Notes: generated by a model from the letters alone, not told the origin. 59,937 nt of DNA, filler included, from Sluysia triapertura (GCA_046118255.1; 4 parts of 4 records of this genome joined end to end with filler, not necessarily neighbours in it), one strand, 5' to 3'. Counted from the first letter of the whole stretch, positions 7,060 through 59,686 are shown. Translations and numbers: made by a program.

Positions 7060-7340
7060 CTAAAATTACTTCTCACATTAAAGTAACAATGTACATGAAA
7101 ATAGTAAATTTAACTTTAATTTTTAGAATTCAATTGATTTTTAGTTTTTCATACTCAATTTTCTAATGGAAAATGTTTGAAATACTTATTCACAATTAGA
7201 TCATACAATAGAAATTTCAAATTTATTCCGAGATTCGCCTATTTCAATAAACCATCTCATATTCAATTTATTATATTTCCATCATTATAAATATAAAAGA
7301 TTCGATATTCTACAATTGACATTTAATTAAAATTTAACTT
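7060..7340. repeat. Unclassified dispersed repeat (other copies ~18770-18970 and ~25190-25287)
   Basis: Shared core ...GAATT(C/A/T)A..T(G/A)ATTT..(A/G)GTT...TTTTCTAATG(G)AAA in three contig positions. Confidence 0.65.
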
Positions 7341-7685
7341 AGCTCGCTGTTAAGGATTTACTTACATGAACTCCATCAATCATCGATAGATCTTTTTAAA
7401 ATAAGTACACAATTACAACTTTGGCAGCATTCCGCATTCAATCGTTATTCATTAAGTAAGTCAACAAAAGACAAACATTATTGAAAGATTGATGCCGGAA
7501 AAATAATTCTGGTGGCCAACTCACTAATCTTAATAAATTTCACAAAAATTCTACTTCAAACATATTAAAATCACATAAATTTTTTTTATTTTTATTTTTT
7601 TTAAGTTGTAAATATATATTAAAACTTTGCTCAAAAAATACAACAAAATACTTAATAGAAGTTTTATTTAATAAAGTTTTATAAG

Positions 7686-8243
7686 TCAAGTTATATCTTC
7701 TGTATGTGTCATACTTCTCGATTCCGGTTCCACTATTTTATGAAATTCCAATGCAAATTTATTATTACGAGGAATTCTTGTCCGAGAGGTAAGATTATCG
7801 ATCAGTTTGTTAACTTCTGATTCACAGGCCGTGTGAGTGTAGTGACAATTAACTTCATTCTTAATACACAATCCATAACTATCTGTGCGGAATCGGCAAA
7901 AGGCGGTCATCTCGGTTTTATTTACAACTTGTAAATACTTAATATAATTGTTATCATCTTTATAATACTTAACATAGTTGTTATCATCTTTATCTTTATA
8001 ATGCTTAACATAATCGTTATCATCTTCATCTTTATAATGCGTAACATTATTGTTATCATCTTCATTTTCATAATGCTTAACATAATCGTTATCTTCTTCA
8101 TAATGCTTGATATAATTATTATCATCTTGATAATGGTTAACATAACTGTTATCATCGCCATACTCTTTAACCTTAACATAATTATCCTCAAGATGGTTAA
8201 CATCATTATCATTATCGTCATATTCTTTCAATTTCGTAAGACA
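7686..8243 (-). pseudogene. Repeat-rich ORF ending in a CCCH-type zinc finger; the ATG at 8243 is out of frame with the ORF
   Basis: KTEMTAFCRFRTDSYGLCIKNEVNCHYTH (C-x9-C-x6-C-x3-H) follows D/N/Y/K tandem repeats; MSYEIE from 8243 is one frameshift from the ORF. Confidence 0.45.
7945..8225. repeat. Degenerate coding tandem repeat (~27-36 bp units, DDNxYVKHY-like)
   Basis: Recurrent TAATGCTTAACATAATCGTTATCATCTT-type units. Confidence 0.85.
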
Positions 8244-8494: not shown

Positions 8495-8562
8495 GATTGG
8501 CTAGCCAACCAAAATTGTTTAGAGGTAATCAGTATGATAATCGACTTGGTTGGATAGCCAAT
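8495..8562. promoter_or_regulatory. Paired inverted CCAAT (NF-Y-like) promoter module
   Basis: GATTGGCTAGCCAACCA ... TGGTTGGATAGCCAAT in a locally GC-richer island upstream of the minus-strand ORF. Confidence 0.5.
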
Positions 8563-9619
8563 ACGAGCAGTTAATTCATTTTATTAATTTGATGATATTG
8601 AAGTCAACTGTAATGCAACCATCATCGCAGTGACAAGAATATCTAGAATCACAAATATTTTAAGTATAAAACAATATCATGGCGTTTCAAAGAATTTCAA
8701 GATTTTTGAAGACATTTTGGAATACGCTTAAATATCTGAAGCTGTGAAAAATCTTTTAAAGTCTTTAAAATATTCAAAAACTTTTAATATATCAAGATTT
8801 TTAAGATTTTACGGTGTCATATAAGTTTAGAAACTTTTAAATCCTTTAAACATAAAATAGAATAATTTCTAAAAATAGATTAAATTAAAATCTTCATTAA
8901 ATTAAAGAAAAATAAGTTTTATGAAAATTATATGGTGATTAAATTGTTTGTAAACTTTAATATGGAGAAAAGTCAAATTTAATTCTCAAAACTAAAATAT
9001 TAAATTTCTCATATTTAAAATGATGTAATGATAATAAACCAAATAGAAGATAGTTAGTACACATGAGAACAATTCAGATGGTTCATTTGATTTTAAGAAC
9101 TATAAACATTCTTCTTTAAAAACTAGGTATGAAAAAACTGAATATTAAAGGGTTTGCAATCCTACATTAACTTAATAAATTTTTTTAGAATCTTTCAATC
9201 AGTTATTATTATTCATTAACAGTTTATTTGTATAATTTATTTTGTTACAATTTGTCAGTAATTTACAATTTTTGTAATAAATCAGATGAATTAATAAAAG
9301 AAATCATATCGCTAGAACTTTGATGGATTTGATAATTATTGTATTATAAATGCCAGAATTTTGTAAACAATATCAAGTAGATACGAAAATGAAATTTGTG
9401 AATTAAATCAAATGAATATAATTAAATCACAACGTAAGTAAACTTAAACGGGTATTGTTAAAGAATTATTCTGCGATAATGTTAATAACTATAAAGAAAA
9501 TAAACATTGTCAATGTAACGAAACAAAGGAGCTGCTCCATGAACAATATTCATGAACAATACTTCATGAACAACATTCAACGAAGTGATAAATGAACAAT
9601 ATGAGGTAAACATAAATGG

Positions 9620-12233: not shown

Positions 12234-12306
12234 GTAGAGCAGTCGGACTGCGCAGACGATGGTCCCGGGTTCGATCCCCGGTCAGTCCATTTTACGAAGT
12301 CTAACA
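12234..12306 (+). mobile_element. tRNA-like repeat unit, 5' truncated by contig edge
   Basis: GTAGAGC...CCGGGTTCGATCCCCGGTCAGTCCA TTTT ACGAAGTCTAACA. Confidence 0.85.
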
Positions 12307-12329
12307 ATAGTATAGTCAATATTACCATA

Positions 12330-13694: not shown

Positions 13695-15356
13695 TTTAAT
13701 TAGCATTATTTTGTTTTTTTATGTCAGTCGCAATGACACATTGCTAGAGTACTAGTTCATACGATTCTCGAGAAAAAAAGAGCGAGACCCTTGTTAAAAA
13801 TTGCATATCTCTCCACTGATTATTATTATGTCTCATGGAATATTTTATTTCTACCTTCACAGTATTAATTTATTAAATTTTTAGGAAATAGGAGTGAAAT
13901 ATTCATTCATAGTAAAAAAATATAAAGAATATTCAGTTAGGTCTATAAGTAACGTATAAAAAATAATAATTTTGTAAATAACTCTATTGTTAAATAAAAT
14001 TGATAATTATTACAACTAACGGTGAAGATTGTATTATGGAATCATTTAAAATAATAATAAAATGTTTCAGAATAATGCTTAGTTTAAGTATAATTAATAA
14101 ATCCATTTAAAAATGTATTTTAAATAATTTTGAATAATTAATTTGTAATGAAAAATACTAGTATAATCGGAATATAACTAAAACATTCTGAATAATTAAG
14201 TAGAATAATTCAAATGAACAAATAAATTTTATTGTAGATGGATTAACAAAATTAATCGATTTTAGCAGTAATGTTATTGAATTTCTGAGAAGATTATAGT
14301 GGATATTCGTTCATCGAATATTTTACACAGCAAATGAAATTATACATTAAATATGAAGTGTTCTTGAAAATAATTTAAAATGCTGAGGGATTACTTTCTT
14401 TGTAACAATGTAAAACACACAGATCATTTTGGCATGTGTGTAAATCATTTATTCTAATGGTAACATAATTTATTTTAAGTAAATAAATAATGCGAATTAA
14501 GTATAATGCGATTTTTATTTATTTATTTATATTTGAAACGGTATTTGATGGACAATATATTTGAATCTCTAAATAATAAATAATAATTTATTGACGAACT
14601 GTGTACTCAAAAATACTTTAAAAAATTAAGATTATCAATAAAAAACAACAGCAATGTAATATAATTCGACAAAGATAAATAAAATACGAGAAAGCGTTGC
14701 GATCCAGAAGATCATAATCGCTGAAAGCATAAGGAGGTTTAATTTGTTTCTGCGGTCATCAAAAGAATTAACATTAAAATCATTTGGAATCAAGATTAAG
14801 TAGTAAGTTTTATTCATATAAGAATCAGTTTTCTTTAACGTTATTTCTTTATAAAAAATTTTGTGATTAATATAATTCTTGTCTTAAGCTGCATTTAAAA
14901 TCTATTTTAATATTAGGTCAAAAAAACTATTGATTTAATTTAATTTGAATAATATTTTGAATGCACAATTTAATTGAAATTGTTAACATCATCTTTCTGT
15001 ATTCATCAGCTAAAGTAAGATTAGCTTCAAACTAAATATTGGCATCGTTGTATATCTGATTCATTAAAGTGTGTTGAAATAGCATTAAATTGTTATCGAC
15101 CCTCGCTTTCCTATGGGAATATCGAGAAAATTTTCGTAAAACGTATTCTGTAGGTGAACTCATATTAACATGTATATATGTTGTGTAACCCTTGATGTTG
15201 ATTATTATAAACGATTTTTATTTATTGAATTATTTTGAGATTGATTTATAATAAATTGTAAGTAATTGTCGTAAGTGAGTAATTGATTATTATTTAATTT
15301 CTATTGTAAAGTGTCATGGAATAATAATAGTATTATTAACTATAATAAAACAAAAT

Positions 15357-15462
15357 TGTTAGACGGGCTGATAGCTCAGTGATCAGAACATCGAACTGTA
15401 CAGCTGTGAAGCGAGAGGTCCCAGGTTCGATACCAGGTCAGTCAATTTATTGAAGTCTAACA
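15357..15462 (+). mobile_element. tRNA-like repeat unit with TGTTAGAC/GTCTAACA ends
   Basis: A-box TAGCTCAGTG, B-box GGTTCGATACC, GGGCTGA/TCAGTC acceptor-like stem, small insertion in the anticodon arm. Confidence 0.85.
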
Positions 15463-15899
15463 GTAATATAAATATATTGTGATATATAGTTATAATATAT
15501 TGATAATCAGACTCATTTATTTGTGCTGTTAATTTAAAGAATATTAAAGCGATAAAAAAATAACATAACTCTGATTTTTAATTCAGTATCAAAATTATGA
15601 AATTCAAAATATTAGGAAATGAAAATCTGTTCATTACAGTATAAAATTGTTATTAAAATTGATATAATTTATCTGTGATATTCGATTTATTTAAATGATG
15701 TATGTTCGGTATTATGTCGCAATTTAGAAATATTGTTTTACGTTGCTTAGTTGCACTCTTTCTACATTTGTTTTGTTTTTTAATAAAAATTTTAATAATA
15801 GCAGAATTCTGTGAATCAACCGAAGAGAATGCCATTAACATTGATCTCTTCTCGAAATGTATATGGTTGTGTCGTTATTCAAAATAAATTCAACATAAA

Positions 15900-16560
15900 T
15901 CAATAATTAAATTAAAATGAAATCTCAGTATATTTTTAATTATCACAACAATCTAATAATTATTCTTTTATGGTAATATGCCTTTAATATAAAATCTCAA
16001 TATAGATATCCTTCAATTAATAACTGTTCTTTTACAATAATATTTTCTCAATATACAAATTGTAAATCAATGTCTATAAAATATTAAATCTATAAAAATC
16101 CCAGGTGTGACACCAATATTAACAATAATAAAATAATAAAACTGCAGGTTACTAACCTTAATAAAACCATTGTTTTTGAATTTTAGTCAATTCCAGAAGA
16201 TAAGTCCTCAATCACAATGTTATTCACAAATGTGTTGAGGCAGCATCCCTAAGGGAGATAAAATTTTGTAAAGTTTTCTGTTTATTTTAGCTATCTTTTC
16301 TTTTTTTTCTAATTTTGATACAGAAATCTGATTGTTTATGTTGTAGTTGGGTAATCGCTTAGACGAAAATAATTACTTATTAAATAATTCATTTTTTTTA
16401 GTCAGTCATAAGTCGACCAATTTTAATAATTAAATTTCAATAGTAATTGTTGTCGGTTTCTAATTTCATTGTCTCCTTCAATTACACAAAGATAATGGGA
16501 TTTGTAATTAACAATCCTCTTATAAAAATTTAACATCGTTATTACATGAATATTCTGTTT
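15900..16560 (-). repeat. Inverted diverged copy of the 16915-17560 repeat
   Basis: TTGAGGCAGCATCCCTAA is a near reverse complement of TTAGGGACGCTGCCTCAA; collinear similarity over ~600 bp. Confidence 0.75.
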
Positions 16561-16699
16561 TTAACACAATTTGTCATCTTAAAATAAAGATAAAATTGAT
16601 AAAATACTAAATTTATTTTTCTTAGAAAACTTTTATATAATACGTTGTGTGTCAGCCTTAAGTCGCACGTGGATTTCAATAACATGTTGGATTTCGACT

Positions 16700-17560
16700 C
16701 TTCTTATTTAGTTTTTATAATTTAAAATTAAAGTTAAACATGTTCTGCTGTTTAAGTATAAGTAAAAATAAATATTAAATTAATGCTAATGAATATACCA
16801 ATTCAAATGTGTTCGTGCAACATATTATACTAATGATTCCTATGGAAAATAAATTTATTATTTCATTAATTTTATCCTTAATTTAAGTTAATAAATGATA
16901 TTAAATTTTAATTTAAAAGATAAGGGGATTGTTTACCGCAAATTGCATTGTATTTAAGTGATTAAAAAGATAATGAAATTAGACACAGGCGGAAATTACT
17001 GTTGGAATTTAATCATTAAAATATGTCGGCGTATTACCGGCTAAAAAGAATTAACAGTTTAATTTCCGTTTTGTCCGATTTCCTAAATGATTATTAAACT
17101 GCCATAAAAGTAGTCATATTTTTGCAGAAGAAAACAAAATCAAGGAAAGATAAAGAAAATACAAGACGTCTTTTAGCTTTAGGGACGCTGCCTCAATTCA
17201 TTTATGGAAAACAATGAAATTGAGGCTTATTCTTTAGCAATCAACTAAAATAAGTATTAGAGTGATTTAAAAAAAGGTTAATAATTTGTTTATTTTATTT
17301 GTTATTTTTTAGTTATGTTAATACGGGCTTCACGTTTATTGATTTTATTTAAGTTGTGTCACCCATGGTATTGATTTTTAATATTTAGAGATTTATACCT
17401 TTGAAGTTGATAATAAAAGATATTCTGTAATTAAAAGAATAATTAGTTTTAATTATATTATTATAATATTACTTGTATTATTATAATATAATTTTTATTG
17501 TAATTGTGATATTTTAAAGAATGTATCGAGATTCAGAATTTGTTTAATTATTGGGTTACA
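16700..17560 (+). repeat. Unclassified ~860-bp dispersed repeat ending in TTGGGTTACA (homologue at 53360-54228)
   Basis: Shared blocks AAAAGATAAGGGGATTGTTT, ACACAGGCGGAAATTACTG, GAATTTGTTTAATTATTGGGTTA. Confidence 0.85.
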
Positions 17561-17645: not shown

Positions 17646-18330
17646 TGTGGTGACCAACCCAATATTTTAAAATTTTAGTTTAACAGTATATAACAAAATT
17701 ACACTTCAGAACATCTAACAATTTGTAATACCTTCAAACACTCTAAACATGAAATTTTATATCATCCAAATCATTCCCAACTTTGAAAATCATCAAAGAA
17801 GTACTTTAAAAATTAATTGAGATATTTTAAATTTAATTCAGCACACTCCACATAAAATCACATTCCATGATACTTTAACTATTTTTCATCTAAACCTTTC
17901 TACATTTTAATTCCTCTACTTCCACTAAAACCTTATCCTAATCTGCTCAAAACATCCCTATTTCATACTTCATAACATAAATGTACATACACTTTCAGAG
18001 TAATAACAGACATCATAAAAATTAATAATAAACATTTTACTCATAGTTCTATAACAGCATAACCATAATCACATTTGTTTAAATCTTACAATTACTTTTA
18101 AAAGGCATTAAAATCACCGCCATACTTTATTTCGTTCATACTCATCAAAATTATTTTATAGCTTAAAACATTTTTTATATACACAATCTGTCAACATCCA
18201 AACTAGGATGACTTACAAAATCTTCAATGTATATTTAAAAGTTCATTTAAAAAGAAACATTTTATTTTACTATCTCACAATGCTAGAATTGTAACTACAT
18301 ACATCTATCAATCTCCAACATGGTTCTTTT
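17646..18330 (+). mobile_element. One end and C/A-rich arm of the TGTGGTGACC element family
   Basis: Begins TGTGGTGACCAACCCAATATTTTAAAATTTTA; the first ~100 bp resemble the reverse complement read from 34220; no partner end found. Confidence 0.75.
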
Positions 18331-19800
18331 TTATTTAAGTTTTTTTAATTGTAAAATTTCATTCTTTTCTTTCAAATTAGTCCAAAACATATTAAATTGC
18401 TTCCATTCAATTAGGTTAATGAGTCTAATATAGTGTATAAAGCTGCTGTTACTCGACTATATTCAATCATCTAGCAGTGACTTATGGAGATAAGTTATCT
18501 TGTGAACAACAATTAACTTGCCTTACCATACATTTTATCAACCTTTCTTGTCTTATAGGTACTTCTTACTCCTTTAAAAGCACGAATTTTTATTTCTATA
18601 CATATATACGGCGATTACTTATAATTCATTTAAATCTTTGGATTACGTTCGAACACGAAATTCTATTTCTCATTGTAGAATATAAAAATTCGATTAACAA
18701 TCAACAATTATTTTTCTTCTACTCTACTCGATCTATTTTTCATAAATTACTTCTTACATTAAAATAACTATTGTTATTATTATCAACACGCTCAAAAATG
18801 ATGAATTTAACTTTAGTTTTTGGAATTAATTAATTTTTAGTTCCACAAATTCATTTTTCTAATGGAAAGTGTTTAAAGTTCTCATTCCCAAACAAACCAT
18901 TTCACAAACATTTCAACCTCATTGTTCACATAAATATAATTTTTCTTAATTAATTAATTAATTTAACTTAAGTTTATTTTATGTTTAAAGGTTTTACTAT
19001 GACTATAAATTTATTAGATACTTTATAAGGTACTCAGAAGTTCTAGATATATTCACCTTCACTACTCTGATTCTTTTTTCTACTTTTTAATGTTAATTAT
19101 TAATGTATCAATTTTATCTTTAATATCATTAACCATGATTTTAATTTTTGAACATTTTAAAGGTTCCAAACATTTTACAAAGTTACTCGAAGGTCTCAAA
19201 AGTTTATTAAGATCTCTAAGGTCTTCAAAGGTCCTAAAAAGATCAACAATGTCTGAAATGGTTATAAGGTTCAGAAATTCCAAGGTCTCTTCATACTTTA
19301 AAACATCTTTCGAAACCCTTCTTAAGCCTTCATAAGGATATTAAGTATTCTTCTTCATAATTCTTATTTTGTCAATATATAATTAAGCTTATGTTATTAT
19401 TGTTGGGATTGTCCAACTGTGGATTAGAAGATAAGTAAAAGACACATAGAGTTGAAGGAAGAGTTTATATGAATGAGAGAGTGTCTGATTGTGAGACTTG
19501 GGATTGATTGGATGATGAGAGTGTATAAAATAAAATTTTTTAAATTTTTCAAACACAATAACACAATCGCACATTCACACAATCCGGCCGGCATTGAAGA
19601 TCCATGCATATGGTAATCTTTTTATTTAGTTTTATTTTTATTATTTTAAATAAAATTAAAATAAAATAAGTAGATAAATTTTTTTGGGCGGGGGAAATAT
19701 TTAAATGATAATTTTAAAGACACTTTTTTAAAGTCATTTTAATGTTGGGATATAGGCCTAAGGTGCCATTTAGTATAAGTGAATATAGTAATCTAAATAT

Positions 19801-19885
19801 TGTTAGACAGGGATAATATCTTAGTGGTAGAGCATCGAACTGCGCAGCGAAAGGCCCCGGGTTCGATCCCCGGTCAGTCCATTAA
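19801..19885 (+). mobile_element. tRNA-like repeat unit lacking the right inverted end
   Basis: TGTTAGACAGGG..AGTGGTAGAGCATCGAACTGCGCAGCGAAAGGCCCCGGGTTCGATCCCCGGTCAGTCCA. Confidence 0.85.
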
Positions 19886-20194
19886 GATATTAATAGGTTT
19901 TACCTTTTTGGGTTACTATTTTGAAATATATATTTATTATTTTAATTTTAATTCTTAATAAATTTGATTTTCGGGAGGACCCCTACCCAAAATTTTTTGA
20001 CAGCAGTTAAAATAAAAATATTTTGAAATATAATATTGCTTATGTTGATTGTAATAGTTTTTAAGTCAGTAATAAATAAAGTAAATTTAACTTTATTGGG
20101 TTATTATTTTCGAAATATATATTTAATTATTATTTAATTATAAGTACTTTTAATTCTTAATATAAATTAACACAAATAAGAATTTTTGCCCAAG

Positions 20195-22546
20195 TTAAAA
20201 AAAGTTTATGTATTGGTTAAAAATTTTTTGCTTAAGGTACTTACTAATATAATAATATACGAAATTAAAAGTGACACTAAACACAGATTTAAGAAAATTT
20301 ATGAAACTAGAGTTAAAACTTCTAGCAAATGTCTTTTTGGTTGCAGTGAATGTTACTGAAGCTCGCATTGACGTTCCCAGACCTCTTTTCAATTTGCACA
20401 TTAAGAATATTAATATAATAAAAGAATTATAAAGTATTACCACAACGTCGTTTATTTGTAGTTGAATTCCAAGCTCTAGTAAGTCCAATCCGACTACATG
20501 AGAAAAACTATGAACTTCAAAAGATTTTAAATTTTGTTTTTAAATTTGTACCCTCTAAGGGCTTAAAATCAGGTAGATAATCGACTTCCAATTGATATTA
20601 TATAGGTCTAAGTAAAACGACACTAAGAATTTTATCTGCACATTCATCATATAATACTTTCATTGCATAGATAGTATTGGCTATTGACAATCTGCCACAT
20701 ATTCAATTACTTCAGTTGCTGAAATTTTATAAGCACTGATTCTACCAAGTAATACTTTTCTAAGAAATCGTTTCCAACGTTTAACAAACTTATCAAAAAA
20801 GCCTAAAAAATTCAAATCTTGAATCCCAACTGCTACTACATTTTTAGTTCCGTCATAATTATAATAAATAAATGTTTGAACAATATTATCTTTTAGTTGA
20901 CTTAACTTTAATTATGGATTTTGAATAGACATTTCTATTTAAAATATAATTGGTGAACTCTTTTGGTAGTCAACTGTACGCATAAGGTGCTGATACATTA
21001 CGTAAACAAAAATTATATTTAAATCTGAAATGTTTGTGTAATTCATTTTCAAAGTTTTTTGAAATATAAGCATGACAATAATCGCCTTATTCAATATCAG
21101 CACTTAGTTCACGTTCGTCCACAGATTGTGTGCTATATGAAACTTGTTGGTCTAATACTGCATCATCTGGATGGAATTTATTTATATTTAGATAATGAAT
21201 TGTAGTATTGTTCTTCTAATACAAATTCATTTTCTTCATCGATATTGATATCGTTAAAATTATCACGATCATCATCACTTGACAGAGAATGCGTAGACTT
21301 GCTTAAATCGATCATTTCATAGTCAGAATTATTTTTCATTAACGGTAAATCATTATGAAAAGCATTTGGAACATACAAATTCTTCATATCGTAAGTCACA
21401 TTATAATTACAGGCTTCAAAATCATTATTGATATCTAGTTCTAAATTATCAAAAGTATTTGGTTGTAATCCAGCACCTTTATCAATACTATCTTCACTTT
21501 CGATATCAATATCAGCATATTTTAAGCAAGTACATTTAATTGATTCATTATTCATGATATTGAGTGCAATAATTAATTTTATGTTATTAATTAATAGCTA
21601 ATAAATCTTGGAATTTTTAATTTTTTAATATTGTAAGATCTTAAAGTTGTTTAAATTATGAAATACAATTAAAATTATTAAAAATTTAATTACTTTATTA
21701 GAATTTAATTTTTTATTACAAATTTGAAAATTAAATTTATACATAATTATCATCACGAAATACAGTGTTTTAAGTTTATTCAAGAGAAACAACAATTTGT
21801 GAACGATAAAAAATTTATTTATAAAACTAAGACTAAAATGTTAATGTTAGTGGAATTTACATTTTTATTATGTCTTCTTCTTGACCAAGTTTCACCGACT
21901 AAATAAAAAAGTAAAATTAATTTACCATCATTATAATCATATTTATTAATTACTTTAATTTCATCTGATATAGGTTCCTCGAATTGTAATTTTGTGACAT
22001 TGTTGGTGAGTACTTCGAGCGACGTTCTTGATGGAGACTGTGCTGGAATGAAAATATCTATCGATTCCAGTAATCTTTTTATTCGATCGAGATGAATGTT
22101 AGTAACTGCTGACTTAATTTCTATTTCTGTGAGATCTTTACGCTTCATACCGTACATATGACAATTGCCAGATTGCGTAATCTCATATGGGCTTAATGCT
22201 GTCTTATAATGTCTATCGAGTTTTAAGTCCTGGATTGAACTATGATACCTGAGATTGAAATTCTTACTTGGAATTCTAGATTGTGGCATATTGAAATTAC
22301 CAGTACTAATTGACAATTCAATGTCTTCAAGGTAAACAAAATAGGAACATCAGTCGATTTCGAGAGATTCTTATTTTGTTCTCGTTTTTGGTAAAGCATT
22401 CTTGAATTCGAACGCACTGTTGGAATGATGTTGATGCACATTTTATCTATAACGGGTTCATAATACTGCGTATCAGGATAATCTTTACCAACAACTAAAA
22501 CTTTAGATAGGTATGATTTATCAGTATAATGCATTAGTGTTCGCAT
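20195..22546 (-). pseudogene. Run of decayed, unidentified co-oriented ORF fragments
   Basis: ORFs 22223-22546, 21819-22316, 21178-21555 and broken frames 20195-20930 have coding-like composition, overlaps and frameshifts; no family recognised. Confidence 0.35.
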
Positions 22547-22619
22547 AATATCCTAAAAATATCTCTTTCTATATTATTATTTGACGTAGCACAGACATAA
22601 AATTTCACTTACTAGTTCT

Positions 22620-23279
22620 ACATTAACAAATTGTGGATCTTGTAACAAAAATCTGAACTTCTTTTAAATTTCACCATAACATGTTGTTGAATAAGTTTGT
22701 ATTTGGTTAAAAATCTTTTTATTTTTCTTCTTGCTTATATTGGTAGATTTTGGTGGTACAATTCGTAAACCTTCCTCAAAGTCTTCACGTTATTGATAAC
22801 TAATCGCTTTATCTGCCCCGTAAATTACTAAATATTGAATAGGATAAAAAATTTCTTTAATTTGACTAGTATGATGAAGCATCATTAAAATTCGATCAGG
22901 AGTAGCTAGTATAATGTGAATAACAGAAATACTAAGTTCTGTTAGTTGATCAGTCATATCAATATCCCCAGTCAAACACATTTTTTTCAAACCTAATCGT
23001 TCGTTCATTTCTAAAAACTCACAATACTCCTGTGCTACTAATTCAACTGATGGAATAAAAATCATTAGGTACATAAATGGCTGATCGTTATGCAAACATC
23101 GTTAAATAATTTGAATAATGTAGCAAGCCGTTTTTTTGCTATCGGTTCCAGATAAACCAAATAACATCTTTCAATAATAGTGACGTAGTATGTTGTTAAA
23201 TTTGCACCGGTTCTGGCAACTTTAATTTAGAGATATTAACCAAAAGTTTAGATATATTAGCTGCGGTTGTTGTCATCAT
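22620..23279 (-). pseudogene. DEAD-box RNA helicase N-terminal (RecA1) domain pseudogene
   Basis: Degenerate Q motif (PEPVQI*Q), motif I DVIGLSGTDSKKT, Ia PSVELVAQ, Ib ATPDRI, II LVIYGAD in correct order; internal stops. Confidence 0.8.
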
Positions 23280-23443
23280 TGTAATAGTGTATTACACTTT
23301 AATCAGATTTAATTTTTGAACTTTAATGATTATTATTTTAAGTTAACAAAATTTCAATTTTTTTGAGATTATTTTTATTCCGTTTATCTTTTTTTGTTTT
23401 TTAATTTTTCTGGTCAGTATATACAGTTTTGTAATTAATGATG

Positions 23444-23600
23444 ATTGGTAGCATTTGTACTATTTTTGTAGATCAATCAATAATTGACAAGAAACAAAAA
23501 TATAAATCTATCTGTGATTGGGCGTACATCTATTTAACAAGAATAATGATACAGGCATTAAGACTGATAATTCGTTGTTGATTGGGCGTCCAATCCAAAC
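23444..23600. promoter_or_regulatory. CCAAT-box cluster upstream of the DEAD-box fragment
   Basis: TGATTGGTAG, TGATTGGGCGT twice, the last as GATTGGGCGTCCAATCC. Confidence 0.5.
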
Positions 23601-25287
23601 TAGTGAGACGAAAATACAAGGTAGAAAGAATTCAATTAGACTCTCAGTCAAGCGAAATAATGGGCTTAGTAACTGTTACCAGTTGACTGTTTAATACAAC
23701 ATGGTAATTTATTTGTCGTTGGTGAAGAACAGGCAAAATAAATTAATTTGCACAAGGCAGCAACAAACAATAACAATGTCGACAACTAATGATGTTGAAT
23801 GATAATAATTAAATTGTAATATTACTATCAAAGTCTAAATCTAAATAAATCTAAATGTTTAAATCTAAATTTAGTATCGATCGATATTTTCTAAAAATAT
23901 AATTATATGTTAATTGTGTTAATAAAAATCGATAATACAAACTTACTTAATACTATTATTGGTATAATTATTATATTGTTATTTTTATTTATTATTATTG
24001 TTATCTTGATTTATTAATGATAATATTATGATTATTATTATTTTTTTTAAAAATCATCAATATTTTTAAAATTCTTTTAATAAATCAAAATTTACTCATT
24101 TTAATCGGTCAAGGACAAATTAAAAAATATATAGACATAAAATATTCACAAAAACGCACAACATTGTAATCAATATTAAAAGAAATTTCAACAGGATTCT
24201 GAAAGTAATGATAATAAAAATATATTAATAAAACGATATTAATGATAGTAAAAATAATAGTAATAAAATAATAAAGATAAAAGTAAGAAGAAGAAGAATA
24301 ATAATAATAATAATAAAATTGACAATAAAAATAATAATAGTAATAATAAAAATAACAATAGCAATAGTTGTAACAATGATAATTAATGTATATTTTACGC
24401 ATTTGCCATAAATTATTAATCATGTGCTAATTATTTTTCTGATTCTGTAGCGCCTTTGAAAATTATTAAAATATTTAAAATAAATATTTAATTAGCTTAC
24501 AAAGAATCGCAATTATTTAAGTATTCACTAGATCTAATATAAATTTTCAATATTTCTCTTATTTAATATCAAAAATTATTCACCCCAAAATTAAAATCTT
24601 GGAAATCAAATCAATAACAACAACACAACAATTTACTGGTTAAATGAAAATCAATTACAAATTAGTATTATTATAAATCTCTATTAAAATGACGAGATTA
24701 GCATTAACGTTTATGATAGTCTCAAGGATATAACAATATATTAACTATTATTCACGATTATCAATTATAAATTTTTTTAACATAACACAAAAACAAACAA
24801 TTTTTAATAAAATCCTCCAAAAAATATTATTTTTAATTATAAAATAAATTAAAAAATTACTTAAAGCAAGGATCTTCTCATTTGCATTATTAATTGTTAT
24901 TATTGTTGTATTGTCGTAGTTATTGTTATGTTATGAAATAAGATTTTTAAGTTTTCCATTTTATATTTTCTCATCATCCAATAATTTCCCATTTTGGGAT
25001 TAAACATTTTCTCATACATATCACTGCAACATTCTTTGGGAATTAATCCGACAATAATAACTTTGACACTTACATGGTACAGACTGTCAGACTTTATTGG
25101 ATATGGAACACAAAAATTTGATTTACGAATATCTATTATTTTCCTTTACTCTATTCAATATACTTTTACTTATATTAATTCTCACATAAAATAACAATCA
25201 TTATTACATAAAAAATAATTAATTTAATTTTAGTTTTCAGAATTTAATTAATTTCTGGTTTTTCACACCCAATTTTCTAATGAAAAG

Positions 25288-25387
25288 NNNNNNNNNNNNN
25301 NNNNNNNNNNNNNNNNNNNNNNNNNNNNNNNTTAATTAATTAANNNNNNNNNNNNNNNNNNNNNNNNNNNNNNNNNNNNNNNNNNNN
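25288..25387. other. Artificial contig linker
   Basis: N-run/TTAATTAATTAA/N-run. Confidence 0.98.

Positions 25388-25433
<46 letters not shown>
25388..25433. repeat. (TTA)n microsatellite
   Basis: Direct read, at a contig edge. Confidence 0.95.
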
Positions 25434-25434
<1 letters not shown>

Positions 25435-26289
25435 GTAAGAACTCATGATGATAAATATAAAATAAATGTGGACAAAGTAATTACGAATGCTTGAATAAAC
25501 GTAAAGATGATTATGGTGATTATGAATATTTGATTTACCAAATAATGAATAAACATATATAAAAATGAAGTAAATATTAAATTTTCAAATCATATAATTT
25601 TACACAAATGAATAAACTATATAATAGGTAATATATCACTATTAAAAATGTAAATATTAATGACAATGAATGATAAATTAAATGTAAATATTAAAACAAT
25701 GAATTACATTAATAGTGTCTGGGACAGTATTTTATTATAAAATAAAATCTTTAACGAATAATTCTGATAATTTTATAATTAAATTTTTCTAGGTAATAAA
25801 ATAAACTATTAAATAAATTCTATATTATATTCTAGTATACAGAAAATTAATAAATAAAAATTATCTATGGATATTGTACATGGATTTTGTATATACGTTT
25901 GATAAAATTTTAAGAGACAGAAGCTTTATAATAAAATATTTCATGCTAACACTATCATTGCTTATTTGTACATATTAATAAATATTTGTAACTGATATTT
26001 TACTATTACTATTACCCTCTTCGATTGATATTGAATTTTTGGTAATTACTATTGGTGAATCCAAGATGTATTTGGCGAATATCGGAACGAATTTTAAAAT
26101 TTGGATAGACATTTTACAAGTGCTATTACCCTATTTCGTGAACAAGACTAAGACGAATTTTAATCATTATCCGTTATTTTTGATTTTAAACGATCCATTA
26201 TCGAAAGTGAGTAGTTTTATTATTATCTTGTGTACGTTATATAATATATAAAATTTTACAGAAACCGTAACAATTAATTGTACAAAAGT

Positions 26290-27065
26290 ACCAAGTCTGA
26301 TGGGTGTGGAAGTATGTGCCACTCAAGCCGTAAAAGCTTTTGGCGGGTAAGCAAACTTGTACGAGATTTCGCACTATGACATGGAATACTATACCTTTTT
26401 AATTGATCAATTCTGGATTTTTCCGTCCAGTTGATCACAGTACACTTCAAAATTAATTGTGGTATTGTCCAGTAGAAGATCAAAAAAGGATCCCCTTGAA
26501 ATCACACCAAACAGATAGCATATCGGCCTTCAAAGTGCTTGAGCTTGTTCCTCTTTTTTACCCATTTCTCGTCGCCAGTAATGATTCGCTTCAAAAGTGG
26601 ATTATTTTTTTTAATTTTGAGAAGTCACAGTCGTTAATGCGATGAAGCAAATTTCCTGTAAGAACACGTGGAACCCATATGTCAAGTTTTGAAATTAATA
26701 CAAGACGTTTTACATGATAATGAGCGTCAAATTTAACCTCTCAAGAATCTTACGAGTTGTTATTCGGCGATTTGTATCTCTCAATGCCTTTATTTTGTCT
26801 TCATCGGCTTCAATGAGCCTTCCAGAACTCGGTGCATCTTCAATATCGAAATTGCCAGAAGGAAATTTTGCAAACCAATTTTTGCGTTGTCAATACATGT
26901 TCTCCATATGTATCACATAATTTTCGCCTTGCTTGAACTCATTTTTACCTTTTCGATAGTAAAACAGTAAAATATACCGAAAATTCTGCTTTCCACCAAG
27001 CAAAAACTATTGCAATGAATCAAACAAAATTTTCAACAAACACGCCTCACTATATCCGCTGTCAA
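26290..27065 (-). mobile_element. Defective mariner (DD34D) transposase
   Basis: IWVPRVLT (WVPHEL), NPLLKRIITGDEKWV, TRQKLLRLEWHILPHPSDL (YSPDL region deleted); frameshifts. Confidence 0.9.
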
Positions 27066-27679
27066 AATATATGATTATGCAGCTTATATATTATAAAATT
27101 ATCATATATATATATTTACATTTATATTTTAGGCGTAACGCCTTTAAGAAATAAAAACTATTTATAATTTGTGCGTAAAAACCCTTTCAATGAAATAAAA
27201 TATTGAGGTAATAAACCTGTAAAAATAGTCTAAAAACACATACAAAAAACAATTAAAAATATTTTCAACATAAAAAAATAACGAGATTCGACGAGATTAG
27301 AATATGTATTTGAATACTTCGATTGTAGTATAATTTAGACTCAATTCATTATTCTTTCGTCAATCACCTCCAGTTGTTTATTAGATTGAGACTAATTCAA
27401 TTACTATTCCTCGTCGATTTCCAAATTTTTATCTGACACAATAGCAGTAGCAGTTGTTGTAATAGTGGTAAAAACAGTATAAATTAGAATAAATAAAGCT
27501 TATTTATTTATTTTTGTGCAGATAATGGTAACACAAACTTTATGATCGTTAAATCTAAGCGTTCAAATAAAAGAGAAATATCTAAATTTATTATTAACGT
27601 AAATTAAAAATCATTCAACTATTATTTATTCAATTATTTATTTGTGAACACTGTTAATAATTGTAAGATCAAAACTAAC

Positions 27680-27874
27680 TTCAATTTCAGTTCTTCGATT
27701 GGCTGATTAATTTCTTCAATATCTTTTTCTAAATCTATTAATTTATTTGTAATATCTTCACGCAATAAAGGGTTGATATCGATTGGTGCATGTGTTGCAT
27801 TGTTACCAGTTGTCTGTGTTCTTCCAGTGCATGGTTCCTGTGATGATTCTCGTACTACTTTACTTTTCACATTT
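27680..27874 (-). CDS. CKAP5: Probable downstream exon of ch-TOG/XMAP215
   Basis: AG acceptor in a phase compatible with the 28455 donor, open frame NVKSKVVRES...EELKL, GTTAGT donor; sequence poorly conserved. Confidence 0.55.
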
Positions 27875-40771: not shown

Positions 40772-40822
<51 letters not shown>

Positions 40823-43800
40823 AAATTAGTTGAATTATCGGTTATATGCTTAAAAGTATTAACAATTATATGCCGAGATTGTTAATACTTTTATTACGTA
40901 TTTTATCAGCGTGTCTTTACGACGAAAGCCTTTAATTAAATTGAAAAGAAACAAAACGATCTTAAGGCTCTTAAATTTTAATAAGTAATAAACCAAATGA
41001 ATCATGATAAGACTTAGGTTCTTTTGTTACTACAACCTTTATAACTTTTAAAATGAAAGTGCGCACGTTTATCTTTTTCAAAGACTCCATTAGAAAAATA
41101 TAAGAATTCAAATTTTATTGTGACAAAGAGAAAAATTTTATATAACATATGTGTAAATATAGTATTGTTTTTATGAATTGAGCTTAGAAAGTGATATTCT
41201 AAAAGTTTTCCGATCAAAGTTCGATAATATCGAGCAAATGTAGACATCTTATTATTGATAGTATTTCAGTTTCATGTAGAACTAGACTGTATATCTAAAC
41301 TATACATATTTGCATCAATATTTAATTCTAAGTAGTTTTGAAACTTTGATTATATTTAACTCAATAACGTAAATAACTTTATCCTTAGAACAATAAAATT
41401 TAAAGTGTATGTATTTTTATCTTCTATTCCAAAAATACGTATCTCTACATTTAACACATAAATTTTGAGCACGTATCTTTTACTTTAAAATTATTTAAAT
41501 TCAGAACATATATGTATCTTTAGCTTTAAACATATCATATGTAAAATCGTTAAAATCAACATTGTAATTAGTTTATTGTATATATATCACAGCAGCGAAA
41601 ACGTCGATCCTTTTTTACTAACCAAAATATTTCAAAATGACAATATTGAAATAACTGATTATACTATTTTCCTAACTTTTTTGAGCATACATAGAAGATT
41701 CTACACTATCTCCCTGTTTAACAAATGACATCTTAAATATATCGTAGATTATCACATAATTTTAGAATCATTTTTTGAATATAAAATGAACTAAGTACAA
41801 ACAATTCGATTATCTTTAAAGTATTTTTATTGCTGTAATTTTGAATATACAATAGTTGGAAAGCGGCATCACAAAAACGATCATTACCCTAATTAACATA
41901 GAAAGTTACCCCAAATTTTTTTGACACTTTCCATTAGATTAACATTTTACTTTTTTTTGTAAAAATAGTAATACATTAAAATAGTAAGAGTAGATAAAAT
42001 TAAATTAATGATAATAATAAAGACAGACAATAAAATACTAAAATTTATACTAAGAATGATAAAATTAATAATAAAAGCGATAATAAAAATGTAATGTATT
42101 AAAAAATTAAATTTTAATAATTGATTTAACTTTGAAATTTTTAATATAAGGAAGTTATTTAAAGTGAAAGTGTAAGGGTGAAGATGGATGAATAAATAAT
42201 TAAATGAATTAAAATTGTTTGTGCACTATATTTAAAAATTATATTATTGTGTTCAAAGTGAAGAATTATGGTTTTGAATCGCCACAGTGTTTGCGTGTGT
42301 GCGATATTCCTTTGTTAATTAAAGAAGTCGTTGCACAGTTAATTATTTGATACCAGCTTTCCTTAAAAAAACGGCACAGTTTCGCTATGTCCAAATAAAT
42401 CAATTGACTAGTTCGAAATTTGATCTAAATGATCTAAATTTGCGTGCAACCTTTTATGACCTCTTGATATTTGTTAGAGTATCCATCCATCCAACTGTAA
42501 CGATCTCTAATTGTTTTAGTTTTATTATTGTCTTTAAATTTTATTTGTGATCACTATTCAGTGCAACATTTCAAAAAAAATTCAAGCAAAAAATTCAACG
42601 TAGATGATGTTTGCTCAGTTAAATACTCATCGAATGTTTTAATCCATTCAGGATCATGATGGCTACGAGGAACGATAAATTTTTTAGATATGACTTCGTA
42701 CGTGGTCCAAATACCATCATCAATATCCTTAAAACTCAAAGTTTTTAATAAATTAAGAGTATCAATGGGATGATATGATATGTTTAATCTTAATCAATTT
42801 TTGGTCATCTTGTAAACAATGTTTTGTAAATGTTCTTTTATTTATTAAAAAATTTAATATAAACTGAAATTATTCAATATTATTTGCTTGAATATCTTGC
42901 AATGCTTTACAAAGTAATTCAAAATTATTTAGCAGCTTTATAAATGTTTTCTATCACCAATACTTTTTAATTCATTTCTACTTTATTCAAAATTTTATTG
43001 AATAAAAATTTGATTAAATTTAAAGCCGGCTGAAAGCCCAGAAAAACACGTAAATCTGATTTTTTAGGGACGTATGAACCAAAAATAATTAAATAAAAAA
43101 TTACAAACATTAATTTCGTAACACTAAGAACACAATTTAAATCTAACAATAAAGTAGAAAATTTTTTTTAATCGCTTTCCCGCAATATATTGTTTGTCGT
43201 TCGATTTCTTCGAATTCATTGTTCATATTGTATGGTTTAACAAAGCTCAATAGGACCATTTTAGACCGGGTTCTGGTTGTTAATAATTGTCTTAAAGCAT
43301 TAATCCATGTCTGAGATAAATCATCTAACATCCAATTTATTGAAATATTATTTTGACAGAACATGTAAATAAATATTATTAATGGATTACAGAGGATCTA
43401 CGATTGCCTAAATTCATTTTAGCAAATAAACCACCAATTGAATTATCAATTGTTCTAGGAATATTGTTTGATATTTTATTATCATCTAAACACAAATTAT
43501 CTGGGGTTTAATCTAAATCCTTATTGAATCTCATCACATTTAGTACAAGATTAGTCATCCTTTGAAGGTATAAATGGAATTACCAAATTTACTTTGCCTA
43601 ATTAGTTTATTGAATTAATTTTTTTACCATAACAATAATTATAATCATAATAATAATAAAGTTATATTAATTGTGGTAAGAAAAATAATTGTTTTTCTGA
43701 CGTGACTATTTTATACTGTAATATAATTTATTATTGCTGCTGTTAAAATGTCACAATTAGTAAACGTAGATGTTAATAAAATGAAATAAAAGTAACTACG

Positions 43801-46111: not shown

Positions 46112-46680
46112 TATTTATTACTAATTATATAAGTTTACTAATTTGTAAACTTATAAATCATAAGTATAAAATATATTTTCATCTAAATCTAAAAATATCT
46201 TAGTAATCTCAAAATAAACATTATAAAATCAAAAATAAATGTAAAACAAAAATAACAGCGATTTTTATTAAATTGGAAATGAATAAATGAATACTAACAA
46301 CACAAACAAACAAATAATTTCAAAATACATACATAATAAAAATCATGACAGAAATTGGCCATATAATTTTTCAGGATTACTCCCATATATTTAAACGACG
46401 CAATCATTGCAGAAACTAATTTAAGTTCATTCATATTATCATTAATAATAAATTACTTTGAAAATCATTAAACCAACTAGACGTAAAATAAACAATCACC
46501 AAATAAAGCTAAACATGCACCATATAAGGCAAACCCAGAGTCACGAAAACCCATTACCTAAAAAACCAAACAATAACGTACAAAAGAGATTGAAAAATGT
46601 CGATTAAAAATACAGAATGAAAAAAGCAGGATTCATATTTGACAAATAGAAAGTTGTGTTAGTCATAATATTGTTATATT

Positions 46681-47039
46681 TGTTAGACTTCATAAAATGG
46701 ACTGACCGGAATCGAACCCGGGTCCTCTCGCTGTGCAGTTCGATGGAATTCCTAGAAGAATTCGGACGTTTAGTCAAATGAAAGAGAGCAATAATGGGTC
46801 TGTGATGCCTTTAGATATCCGGGGCCTCGCACGCGCTACAATGGCAGTACCTGCGAGTTTATTTCCCAGTCTAAGAAGGTTGGGTAATCTGCTAATTGCT
46901 GAAATATCAGGAGGAATTCTTAATAAGTGCAAGTCACTAACTTGTGCTAATTACGTCCCTCCCATTTTACACATTGCCCGTCGGTATGATTTACTGAGAT
47001 TGTTGAATCTACCCATTGAGCTATCAGTCCCGTCTAACA
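46681..47039 (-). mobile_element. tRNA-like repeat unit split by a 262-bp insertion
   Basis: Minus strand: TGTTAGACGGGACTGATAGCTCAATGGGTAGA [insert] CATCGAACTGCACAGCGAGAGGACCCGGGTTCGATTCCGGTCAGTCCATTTTATGAAGTCTAACA. Confidence 0.88.
46746..47007 (+). pseudogene. Degenerate 18S rRNA 3'-region fragment
   Basis: GCAATAATGGGTCTGTGATGCCTTTAGATATCCGGGG..CACGCGCTACA, GAGGAATTC..TAAGTGC, GTCCCTCCCATTTTACACATTGCCCGTCG match conserved SSU rRNA blocks in order. Confidence 0.9.
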
Positions 47040-47399
47040 ATTTTAGATTATTATAGTCAATTATACTTTAGGCCCGTACCGTAACATATTGCAATAAAAA
47101 TTGTCGTAATTGGGAAGTTCTTAGTACTTTTAAATACAGAATATAATTCAAATTTCATAAAAAATAATTCACTTTACGAGAACAAGACTGTATGAAACTT
47201 AAAACTCTAAAGCGAAATTCAAAAACTCAACAAAAAGTAGATGATTTCATAGCAATTTTCCAAGATACACTAACACTCATTAATCTAGTGATTTTAAAGA
47301 TATTTTGATTGTGCATTTTTAGAGTGTGTGATATTTAATATTAATTTCATATTTTTGACAATAGCATGCACAATATCTTTTTTATGTTTCTTATGTTCC

Positions 47400-50347: not shown

Positions 50348-53300
50348 TGTACTGTTGCAATAAAATAAAATATTTCATTTTAGAGAGTTAAATTATTCAC
50401 CATGACTATCAACGCTGAATAAAGGTGAGTGCCCGAGTTGCCAATAAAAAAATAAAATATTTTTTTAGATTTTATAAATTAAAATCGATCATTTTTCATG
50501 AAACATCGATTTTTTAGCAAGCAATAAATTTCTTTCTTTAATAAAACCAAATAAAAGTCACAACGCTAATTATTTTAATATTGTAAACTGTTTACAAACT
50601 GATTTTCAAAAAAATTAATTTAATTAACTGTTATTGAATTTTTAACAAATAGCATTACAAAAAATCTTGTATGTCTTGCTCCTTCGAGAGCTCGAACTTC
50701 AAATGCGCCCATCATGTTATTCTATATGTTGTATCGCTTGTAAATAAATAACTATTGTATTATGTTTGTTAAATAAATTAATTTTTTACACAGTTCTTTA
50801 TTTTGTAATTTTGACTTTTTGCCTTTTTTTACTATTTCTATTAATTCGCAGTAAATTTGTATATTTCGTATGAAAAAGCGCCAAATTTTGTTTTGCCCGG
50901 CCCTGAAGACAGTATCACGAATTATATTTACATTTTGAACCAATCAGAGTTAATAAATTATGCAGAAATTATTGTAATACTTACTGTGGAAATATTTCTA
51001 TTCAAGTGATGGATTTTATTAACATTTAATAAATTAACTAATAAATTTATTAGTTAACTAATTTAATTTATAATTAACTAATTTAACATCTAATAAATCA
51101 ACTATATTATTTTCTATTAGAACTAATATATTTGAGTTATGTAAAAAGCAAGATTAAAGACCATTCAACTCCTCATTAGGTTTCCCCTTCTTACAAAGAT
51201 GGTCTTGTCATCCAATACTTGACATACACTTGATTCCAGCCATCTTCAGTTAAATGTTGGTATTGCTTAACCCATGCCAACCTTTTATTGATGTCAACTT
51301 TGGCTTTCTTCTGGGTCGTTTCGTTCCTAAACCATTACCTACGAGTCTCCTTCTGACGTCCTGACACTAACTGCTTCTGCTTTATGATTCATCGTAGAAA
51401 GTTTCACCAAATACCTATCATTTCGCGCGATTTAGAACATAGCTATATTATGTATCGCATTTGTATATTATACATAATATTTCTTATATATTAAATATTA
51501 AGAAAAGCAAAGAAAACATGTTTTTCCTGTTTTAGTCTAATAATTTGGTCACTAATTTAGACAAATAATTATAGATAACTGCTACTATTGTTATCTGGAA
51601 CTGGACTATCATCAACGTTTTACGTATATCATAATAGTATTTAAAAACTCACTTTAAAATAATACATGATTTAATTAAAAATTATTTGTGGTAACGCATG
51701 AGACAAAATTAATCTAAATTTAAATATTACTTTCTCTTGGAATTCATGAAGTAAATTGTCTGTACGTTGAATAGAATCTTGAATCATATCAATGCTGCCT
51801 CAGAATCAGCACAAAAAATTGACAAATATCAAAATAAATTAGGAGAATTTGTTGCAGTAAAAAGGCCTAAGGTGCCATTTGGTAAAAATTGACTATAAAA
51901 TAAAATTGTTAGACGGGGCTGATAACTCAGTGGTAGAGCATTCGAACAGCGCACGAGAGGTCCCGAGTTCGACCCCCGGTCAGTCCACTTTATGAAGTCT
52001 AACAAATTCACCGAGAATTTAACAGTCTTAATAAGCGGTTTCATGTACCACACAAATTATTGTAAACATTTAATGTTTTCACATTATTATTATAATTATA
52101 ATAATTATTATTATTTTCATACTTATTATCATTATTATAATCATTATTATAATCATTATTATAATTATTAGGATCATTATTATCATACTTATTATTATCA
52201 TTATTGTAATCATTATTATAATTATTAGTATCCTTATCATACTTATTATTATCATTATTATTATTCATTATTATAATTATTAGTATCCTTATTATCATAC
52301 TTATTATTATCATTATTATAATTATTAGTTTCCTTATTATCATACTTATTATTATCATTATTATAATCATTATTATAATTATTAGTATCATACTTATTAT
52401 TATCATTATTATAATCATTATTATAATTATTAGTATCCTTATTATCATACTTATTATTATCATTATTATAATTATTAGTATCCTTATTATCACACTTATT
52501 ATTATCATTATTATAATCATTGTTCTACTGTAACATCACCAGCACAAACTGCGCTAGGTAAAATTCCTGTCAGAACTATACAAAGACTTTATCAAGAAAA
52601 TAACACCCAGTCGAGCATATAAATGTAAAAGTTTGTTCATGTAGTACGTACACTTATTTGTTCTAATAAGTTTACTAAACTTTTTATCATTTATCATTTA
52701 TCCATGCAGTAATTCTATCACCAATTTAACACCAACCAGCAGATCCTGCACATATTTGCACTCTGGATTTGATTAAATCAAAAGGAAATATTGCTGTCCA
52801 CAGTGCCGTACCAGCCACGGCTCCACAAGCTCCCGTTTCAACCCAAGACAAATCGGAACGATTTTGATAGTTGGACCATCTCATAAAACCCCATACACTC
52901 AATTCATAGGCACCGAAAAAACAAAAGTATCCTGGAATTTCTCTTGCGAACGTTGGAAGTAATCCGTGAAAGAATCCTCGAAGTCCTTCCTTCTTGAAAA
53001 TGTCACTGCAAATTCGCACTGGACCACTATAATTATAATAATTACATAAGACAATTAAATAAGCTAAAATTTTTATAACACCAATACTAATAGTGTAGTT
53101 TTGCATTATTAAAAGCACAGTGGTGGCCAAAATATTACACGAAAAACCATTTTTATGATAAAGTTCAACATTTTTCAAGGATACTATAAAACTATTAATC
53201 AAAAGTGTATAAATACATTGTCACGGAAAATAACTACTTTCTCCAACAAATTCTGGAGAAATAATAGATAAAAATACTGAGATCCAAATACAGAAATTTT

Positions 53301-58176: not shown

Positions 58177-59332
58177 TGACTCAATAAAATATAAAAAAAT
58201 AAGTTTCAGTAAATTTATCTTAAAAAAAATAAAGTAGGTTATATGTGCTTCATGATATAAATTAAAATGTAGATTAAAAAATATTTGACATGCTTAAAGA
58301 TATATTAGGGCTTAATTATATATAATTAAATAATCCTTTAATTAAGGATAGTAATATTAATATTAAAATCCATCAAAAAATTTTATTCATTATTCACAAA
58401 TTTAATTTCACCAAAATTTCAAATTTTAAAATAATCACACCTTTTTACCATTGAAATTCACCAATACCAACATCATAAAATAACATTCGATATTTACAAT
58501 ACTTCATCAACTCACATACATCAACAATTTAATTAACATTTCAACCATCCATAGCACAATAAACTTCGACATTTAACCTCGAACATTTCACAACATTCAA
58601 GCACCAGATATTTCAACAAACAAATCACAAGTATAATATAAACTTCACAAATCATAAATATAATAGCATTATCAAACAACCCTAACAAATACCTCAGAAA
58701 CATAGATCATTTACATCTAAAACCTTAATCAACAACACCAACTTAAAGCCACTTCATATACACATAACCATCATTAACAATCACTTGTAATAACATTATA
58801 ATATACTAAAATTTATTTTGTAATCGTCATTCAAAATTAAAATAACTTCAACCTTTCAATAAGCATTTTAAACCATTACACTTAATGCATAAATCTTGTT
58901 TTCAAATTATAAACCTTCAATAAGTCTCAATAAATTATTTTAACATTCTTCATTCACTTACAATCTAAACCATTTCTTTTATCTCTAGAAATAAACAAAA
59001 TTAAGCTTTAAACAATTCATTATCTGACTGTGAAGCAACAACGATAACCGATACTTACTATACTTTATTACCGCTGCTCCTCCACAGTTTATTATTCGCT
59101 TTGTTCATTTTTTATTTCATTTTATTATTTTATATCTGAGAAAAGAAAAGAAAATAAAGAAAAAGATCGTGTTGGATTCTGTATAAAGAGATTTATGTAT
59201 TGTATAATTTTACATTTATTAATAATAGTAACAATAATTTTATTATTGTTATTATCATTATTGCTGTTGTTATTACTATTGTTAACTAAGTTTTAAATTT
59301 TATATCTTTCTCTATTTGGACTAAAATAGTTG

Positions 59333-59487
59333 CTACCGTCATCAGTACTTCCAACACCATTTAAAAAATGTCATCCGAGTGACACTACTGATGACGGTAG
59401 TAATCTAAAATCAACCTTTTAATTAATTTTATTCAGCACCCAATCAGAGTACGCATATCCACAGCTCTCACAAACACTCTGATTGGG
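59333..59487. promoter_or_regulatory. Probable bidirectional promoter with two inverted-repeat pairs
   Basis: Perfect 15-bp IR (59333-59347/59386-59400) and 12-bp CCAAT IR (59439-59450/59476-59487), between SLC25A15 (minus) and a plus-strand ORF. Confidence 0.55.
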
Positions 59488-59686
59488 CATATTAAAATTA
59501 CCAGACAAAAGTAACAATTGGTTAAGCTAAAAAAAGAAAAATAGTAGCATTAAAATTCAGACAATAAAAATTTTGTAGTGAGATCAATCAATATAATTCA
59601 GCAATTGAGAAATTATAGAAAAATTTTAAAAATTTTTATGAGACATTAAAAATATAGAGAAGTCAAAATTCAGAAGTGCAGACAAA

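Follow-up and report, generated by a model that had tools for sequence, protein, structure and literature searches.

Why should the recognisable remnants of host genes in one stretch of DNA all be front parts of those genes? The window analysed here, 59,937 nucleotides long, consists of four contigs joined by spacers and comes from an AT-rich eukaryote (about 25% GC). It holds intact exons of BIG1/Sec7, of a CKAP5/XMAP215-like gene and of a mitochondrial carrier, which we take to be SLC25A15-like. The original prediction also placed four decayed N-terminal host fragments in it, and Pfam, structure and profile matches bear this out: DEAD, XRN, Vps39 and mannosidase fragments lie on contigs 2, 3, 3 and 4, every one on the minus strand and all with stops and frameshifts (Table 1). 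These fragments are likely the cargo of jumping DNA with a promoter-like switch of its own, and not the product of a genome-wide copying of gene starts. The Vps39 piece sits in an element with terminal inverted repeats (TIRs) and a target duplication (TSD), and we consider it probable that the four fronts are cargo of non-autonomous cut-and-paste transposons with a promoter-like head. Such a carrier has been demonstrated for this one piece; for the other three we extrapolate.

Table 1. Positions in the window of the element around Vps39 (E1), of related termini and heads, and of the decayed host fragments.
Feature	Position	Strand	Basis or remark
E1, 2,340 bp, TGTGG...CCACA ends, promoter-like head and Vps39 5' half	31881..34220		TIR/TSD analysis
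Left TSD copy, TTATG	31876..31880	+	perfect 5-bp duplication
Short downstream TIR	31881..31918	+	34/38 identical to other end
Decayed Vps39 cargo	31929..33039	-	profile alignment, reaches position 387 of 879
CCAAT hairpin (mirror-image pair), about 190 bp before Vps39 ATG	33227..33290	-	homologous to 8495-8563
Second hairpin of E1 head	33322..33386	-	hairpin search
Upstream arm beginning with terminal repeat, G-poor strand	33959..34220	-	homology to 17646-17931
Right TSD copy, TTATG	34221..34225	+	perfect 5-bp duplication
Third terminus copy with arm	17646..17931	+	homology to E1 arm
Degenerate fourth terminus, about 180 bp past CCCH-finger ORF stop	7508..7572	+	21.6 bits; z 4.4
Second cassette with the same head: ORF containing an Unkempt-like CCCH finger and low-complexity repeats	7689..8243	-	PF25427, E 0.0007
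Second copy of CCAAT hairpin head	8495..8563	-	homologous to 33227-33290
Tail with decayed Unkempt-like CCCH finger (weak, E 0.06)	21819..22552	-	profile search
60-bp phase-0 GT-AG intron, DEAD piece to non-helicase tail	22553..22612	-	sequence
Decayed DEAD-box first RecA domain	22613..23279	-	Pfam, structure, profile matches
CCAAT cluster upstream of DEAD	23443..23600	-	not alignable to E1 head
Decayed XRN1 N-terminal fragment	31340..31650	-	230 bp beyond the left end of E1
Decayed Golgi alpha-mannosidase II GH38N fragment	42320..42790	-	antisense between BIG1/Sec7 exons

When the sequence was compared with itself, the Vps39 piece proved to be bracketed by a short inverted match. It sits within an element, E1, which the original prediction had missed and whose ends form a 38-bp TIR (34/38 identical). 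A perfect 5-bp TSD, TTATG, bounds these ends; a 7-bp TSD with the ends shifted by one base (GTGG..CCAC) fits equally. The TTATG 5-mer has a frequency of about 0.002, and chance alone would give a 5-bp match in about 0.2-0.3% of cases. Across the four contigs, which were all scanned, E1 was the sole inverted pair with a duplication of at least 4 bp. This single instance combines a host gene fragment with TIRs at both ends and a TSD, and carries no transposase; no transposase, including Gypsy-integrase-like DDE, was found in the scanned parts of the window. The upstream arm of E1 is homologous over about 290 bp (68%) to the third terminus copy. Homology to Vps39 breaks off some 10 bp before the short TIR begins on its inner side, while other terminus copies retain about 60-290 bp of arm, as expected if the cargo had replaced the interior. 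We infer that such a replacement took place, and the resulting asymmetry would make the far end easy to miss. The element probably lies inside an intron of the CKAP5/XMAP215-like gene (exon 28442-28819). An about 85-bp near-perfect palindrome (28301-28395) lies just downstream of that exon. The densest CCAAT cluster of the window (34800-35100, 6 in 300 bp) is located past the right end of E1, at a distance of some 0.6-0.9 kb, and would be upstream of the XRN1 piece if E1 were removed.

The identity of the cargo follows from a 62-sequence Vps39 profile, which matches at positions 58-200 (E 2e-14) and 311-387 (E 0.006) of 879. The alignment is colinear from profile position 60 to 386, and its lesions are one 28-codon in-frame insert, deletions and two frameshifts. 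Among 1.84 billion representatives the sole match for the piece was a CNH/Vps39 protein from Helobdella (leech). Against Pfam the ORF gave no match in one scan and E 0.012 in another; it had no match in the PDB. Neither this decayed piece nor the DEAD one found a homologue in word-based searches. The same 62-sequence profile found nothing significant for the C-terminal half anywhere in the window; two C-half matches on contig 1 (E 0.24 and 0.4) were dismissed as weak and in the wrong order. Because the protein is about equally conserved throughout (0.62, 0.56, 0.63, 0.53), recognition bias fails to explain why the front alone is present. The ATG of the cargo lies 56 codons before profile position 58, so that the host start coincides with the slot that the cargo occupies. 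Over 1.1 kb the cargo has no intron-sized gap, whereas intact host exons lie in seven stop-free frames that are 186-495 nt long. This difference favours a spliced template, and judging from the sequence we lean towards RNA or cDNA rather than intron-poor DNA as the source.

The terminus and the head of E1 both recur. The terminus, TGTGGTGACC, has three zero-mismatch occurrences in the window versus none in 100 shuffles. Three copies start with TGTGG and a degenerate fourth starts with TCTGG, scoring above the best of 20 shuffles (19.1 bits). No partner end for the third copy was found on contig 2, and the terminus pattern had no matches in metagenome contigs. The head hairpin occurs at exactly two places in the window and in 0 of 100 shuffles (z 5.6, 0/300). 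On contig 1 it precedes an unrelated CCCH ORF, with the degenerate terminus on the 3' side of that ORF. The two heads match beyond the CCAAT core, and the leaders from hairpin to ATG are weakly similar (z 2.6, 2/300; for the last 60 bp alone, z 1.9, 13/300). Further upstream, beyond the hairpin, the two cassettes do not align, and no upstream arm like that of E1 was found at the contig-1 cassette. Since the hairpin and the same terminus recur around an unrelated ORF, the head likely belongs to the element and not to Vps39. The CCAAT hairpin is then likely a promoter-like head of the element instead of the Vps39 promoter. A mirror-image CCAAT pair (59437-59489) with a twin hairpin (59329-59404) also lies upstream of the intact carrier gene. 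These carrier-gene hairpins differ in sequence from the E1 head, and their presence at an intact gene suggests that modules of this kind may be a usual part of host promoters.

That observation touches on an alternative in which host promoters together with first exons were captured as DNA, in a Pack-MULE-like manner, each CCAAT hairpin being the own promoter of the captured gene. The mirror-image pair upstream of an intact host gene speaks for it, as do the 60-bp intron adjoining the DEAD piece and a possible mannosidase first exon with an AT-rich gap. CCAAT clusters had been predicted upstream of both DEAD and Vps39. Both are present, yet the two regions do not align with each other; this difference between the heads also agrees with DNA capture, and a comparison of the upstream regions of all four fragments revealed no homology. 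The available text of PMC5861414 adds that Pack-MULEs insert near gene starts. Nonetheless, the head of Vps39 matches that of an unrelated ORF which shares its terminus, and 1.1 kb of cargo contains no intron. We therefore judge DNA capture unlikely. Accordingly, the proposal that promoter-proximal DNA or mRNA 5' ends are captured holds for Vps39 as far as capture is concerned; the host-promoter-DNA version fails there, because the hairpin recurs.

The DEAD piece bears on the same question. It matches Pfam DEAD (E 1.6e-12, model 16-150/167) and residues 82-217 of DDX47 chain 3ber (E 2e-10), and an E. coli DEAD-box profile matches it in the first RecA domain only (46-183 of 457). The expectation that the fragments have no obvious long introns is correct for the Vps39 cargo, which has no intron-sized gap, but a 60-bp GT-AG intron (22612-22553) abuts the DEAD piece. 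Fourteen other contigs have a consensus loose end in which the acceptor AG of this intron is retained. The helicase C-domain is absent from the tail beyond the intron, and this tail has no match in the PDB. A full-length DEAD-box copy was considered and rejected, as the E. coli DEAD-box profile left the tail unreported while reporting 235 of 300 shuffles. Also rejected was protein similarity between the two CCCH-bearing ORFs: 272 of 500 shuffles score as high, and the two share weak PF25427 matches only. The surrounding 4.2 kb (20000-24200) are highly repeated. Aligned to this region were 1,264 contigs of run X1, which may be the source sample and whose summed depth is not a copy number; 143 of them are at least 99% identical, 199 are at 95-99, 371 at 90-95 and 551 below 90. 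We extrapolate that the DEAD piece is likely a related cassette type, and the terminus at 17646 could be the downstream end of its unit.

Several further features were noted around this region. A GC-rich hairpin at its downstream edge (19967-19993) is a possible rolling-circle end signal. Coding-like decayed text without a Pfam match lies downstream of the DEAD chimera (21178-21597, 20195-21000 and 19080-19340, minus strand) and in the intron of the carrier gene (55500-57000, minus strand). The segment 19401-19473 matches 56287-56364.

The original prediction had set the four N-terminal pieces against LINE-made processed pseudogenes, in which the 3' end and poly(A) are kept. The 3' halves of Vps39 and DEAD are indeed absent, and all four pieces are N-terminal. 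This bias is not unique, however: LTR retrocopies, too, are known to keep the 5' part, and their median loss is 419 bp at the 5' side versus 1,387 bp at the 3' side in the available portion of Tan et al. 2016 (PMC5131818). An LTR-derived unit into which 5' parts of mRNAs were template-switched during reverse transcription could therefore yield front fragments, and would account for an intronless Vps39 cargo. TG..CA ends and a 5-bp TSD are LTR features too, according to the accessible text of PMC6839031. E1 resembles LTR-mediated retrocopies in its partial cargo with more loss at the 3' side and in forming chimeras with element sequence. In contrast, the retrocopies described in that part of PMC5131818 are flanked by both direct LTRs, as their model requires. 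The ends of E1 are a 38-bp inverted pair, and self-comparison detected inverted ends only, with no direct terminal repeat around the Vps39 cargo. An LTR origin consequently appears quite unlikely.

The two other fragments raise the possibility of a recognition bias. Two frames of the XRN fragment match Pfam XRN_N (E about 7e-5), and the best structural match of the fragment is residues 67-147 of XRN1 structure 9e70; it covers model positions 20-74 and then 101-159, and therefore contains an internal deletion. The mannosidase II fragment matches GH38N (E 0.002 and 0.12) and Drosophila GMII (E 1.8e-6). Near 43418-43150 there is what we take to be a possible mannosidase first exon followed by an AT-rich gap; this piece presumably may keep an intron. 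Contig scans found no element ends (TIR and duplication) for DEAD, XRN1 or mannosidase, and no head hairpin was found at XRN1 or mannosidase. The matched N-terminal domains of XRN1 and mannosidase are the easiest to recognise, and recognition bias may explain these two matches. To regard them as the same kind of cargo is an unsupported extrapolation.

Screens for further decayed host fragments from any protein position, which are insensitive and covered part of the window, gave none in two sets of stop-read frames, 18 and 12 in number. An equally insensitive short-ORF screen of 150 out of 173 ORFs returned two matches, both intact exons; the 23 omitted ORFs comprised 12 scanned before and 11 overlapping or beside exons or previously scanned ORFs. 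Neither screen found internal or C-terminal host fragments. A decayed stretch at 26240-26940 (minus strand), without a Pfam match at E 0.003 and missed by the short-ORF screen, is presumably a mariner-like transposase remnant.

Taken together, these data could be read without any 5' rule common to the fragments. They would then be of mixed origins (one Pack-TIR, an amplified family of chimeric genes, two stray duplicates), with recognition bias added. Such a reading draws on the small number of fragments (n=4), on the absence of ends in three of the four and on a fragment screen insensitive enough to miss the presumed mariner-like remnant. GingerRoot cargo, as reported in the available part of PMC6839031, likewise has no 5' or 3' preference. 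However, Vps39 conservation is flat and still the front alone is present, the DEAD C-domain is absent, and the window screens, insensitive as they are, yielded no internal or C-terminal fragments. On this evidence we give mixed origins little credence.

Segmental duplication or capture by a Helitron/Helentron, which might be invoked for the long multicopy stretch around DEAD and the GC-rich hairpin near its downstream edge, is exceedingly improbable, since E1 has TIRs and a 5-bp duplication, and to our knowledge neither process makes these.

We return to cut-and-paste transposons as the preferred explanation. In its best form, this explanation takes the fragments as cargo, which may be RNA-derived, of Pack-TIR elements whose ends are Ginger-like and whose own promoter precedes a slot for such cargo. 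Pack-MULEs, with longer TSDs and ends that start with G, offer one comparison. E1 resembles rice Pack-MULEs, as far as the accessible text of PMC5861414 describes them, in being a TIR element that carries gene fragments and is linked to the 5' ends of genes. In the available sections of Tan et al. 2021 (PMC8277862), Pack-MULEs were found in no animal reference genome, and Pack-TIRs in 100 such genomes are rare and mostly single-copy, 323 of 370 being hAT or Tc1/mariner. Like these animal Pack-TIRs, including Ssk-FB4, E1 is non-autonomous and has host sequence between TIRs and a target duplication. Unlike those described there, it has TGT..ACA ends, an apparent promoter head of its own and cargo that begins at the start codon.

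The ends themselves resemble those of Ginger elements. According to the portion of Bao et al. 2010 at hand (PMC2836005), E1 shares TGTNR termini and a TIR near the 40-270 bp range with Ginger1/Ginger2-TDD and an AT-rich target with Ginger2; its TSD, where read as 5 bp, has the length of that of TDD-4/5. By contrast, animal Ginger1/2 elements have 4-bp TSDs, and E1 has 5 bp (or 7 bp with shifted ends). Ginger1/Ginger2-TDD also differ in that the scanned parts of the window hold no integrase-like transposase, and swappable host cargo is not described in that portion of the source. In view of the 4-bp TSDs of animal Gingers, and with no transposase in the scanned parts of the window, we do not file E1 as a Ginger. 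GingerRoot, as covered by the available text of Cerbin et al. 2019 (PMC6839031), is a TIR element with host gene fragments like E1; it is integrase-related and often loses its transposase. Its 6-bp TSD and 100-150 bp TIR do not fit E1, and in contrast to E1 it has mostly TA ends and cargo in which introns are retained and neither the 5' nor the 3' side is preferred.

How such an element might acquire gene fronts can be sketched from the structure of E1. An integrase-like (Ginger-type) transposase supplied in trans would move the unit. During gap repair or template switching, host coding sequence would be copied into the slot behind the head, where it would replace part of the CCCH-finger gene of the element. 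As the slot begins with the start codon, gene fronts would have the advantage, and a junction at the start-codon context would alone yield a 5' bias. A bolder form, which we put forward tentatively and regard as doubtful, is that a Ginger-like animal transposon serves as an expression cassette, repeatedly swapping spliced host mRNA fronts in at the ATG. The element would keep its promoter, its leader and the context of its start codon, and a genome-wide library of chimeric genes could result. If true, a cut-and-paste element would thereby capture genes from RNA templates, and a 5' bias would be inherent in the process.

Four host fragments in 60 kb stand against the rarity of gene-carrying TIR transposons in animals, as given in the available part of PMC8277862. 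A mostly shallow literature search returned no precedent for spliced RNA placed behind the promoter of an element as a route to chimeric genes; if the cargo is such RNA, this route would be without precedent in that search. Since E1 is complete, it gives an exact terminus and a duplication length, which makes the cassette family searchable and the enzyme findable. The choice between a DNA and an RNA template is directly testable by comparing one parent gene.

The window also contains other repeats. Members of a second repeat family lie at 6873-7377, 8931-9148, 18678-18923, 19465-19570 and 24950-25287, and inverted copies of it flank the contig-1 CCCH cassette. An about 1.1-kb foldback element (a long inverted repeat) is present in two copies with 71% identity (16180-17251 and 53368-54255). 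An ORF at 3934-4251 (plus strand) without a Pfam match resembles, in our estimation, the C-terminal end of an L2/CR1-type LINE protein. A dispersed repeat (12234-12324, 15329-15482, 19754-19883, 46663-47067 and 51863-52007) has what we take to be a tRNA-like core and is probably SINE-like; its copy at 46663-47067 appears to be split by an insert.
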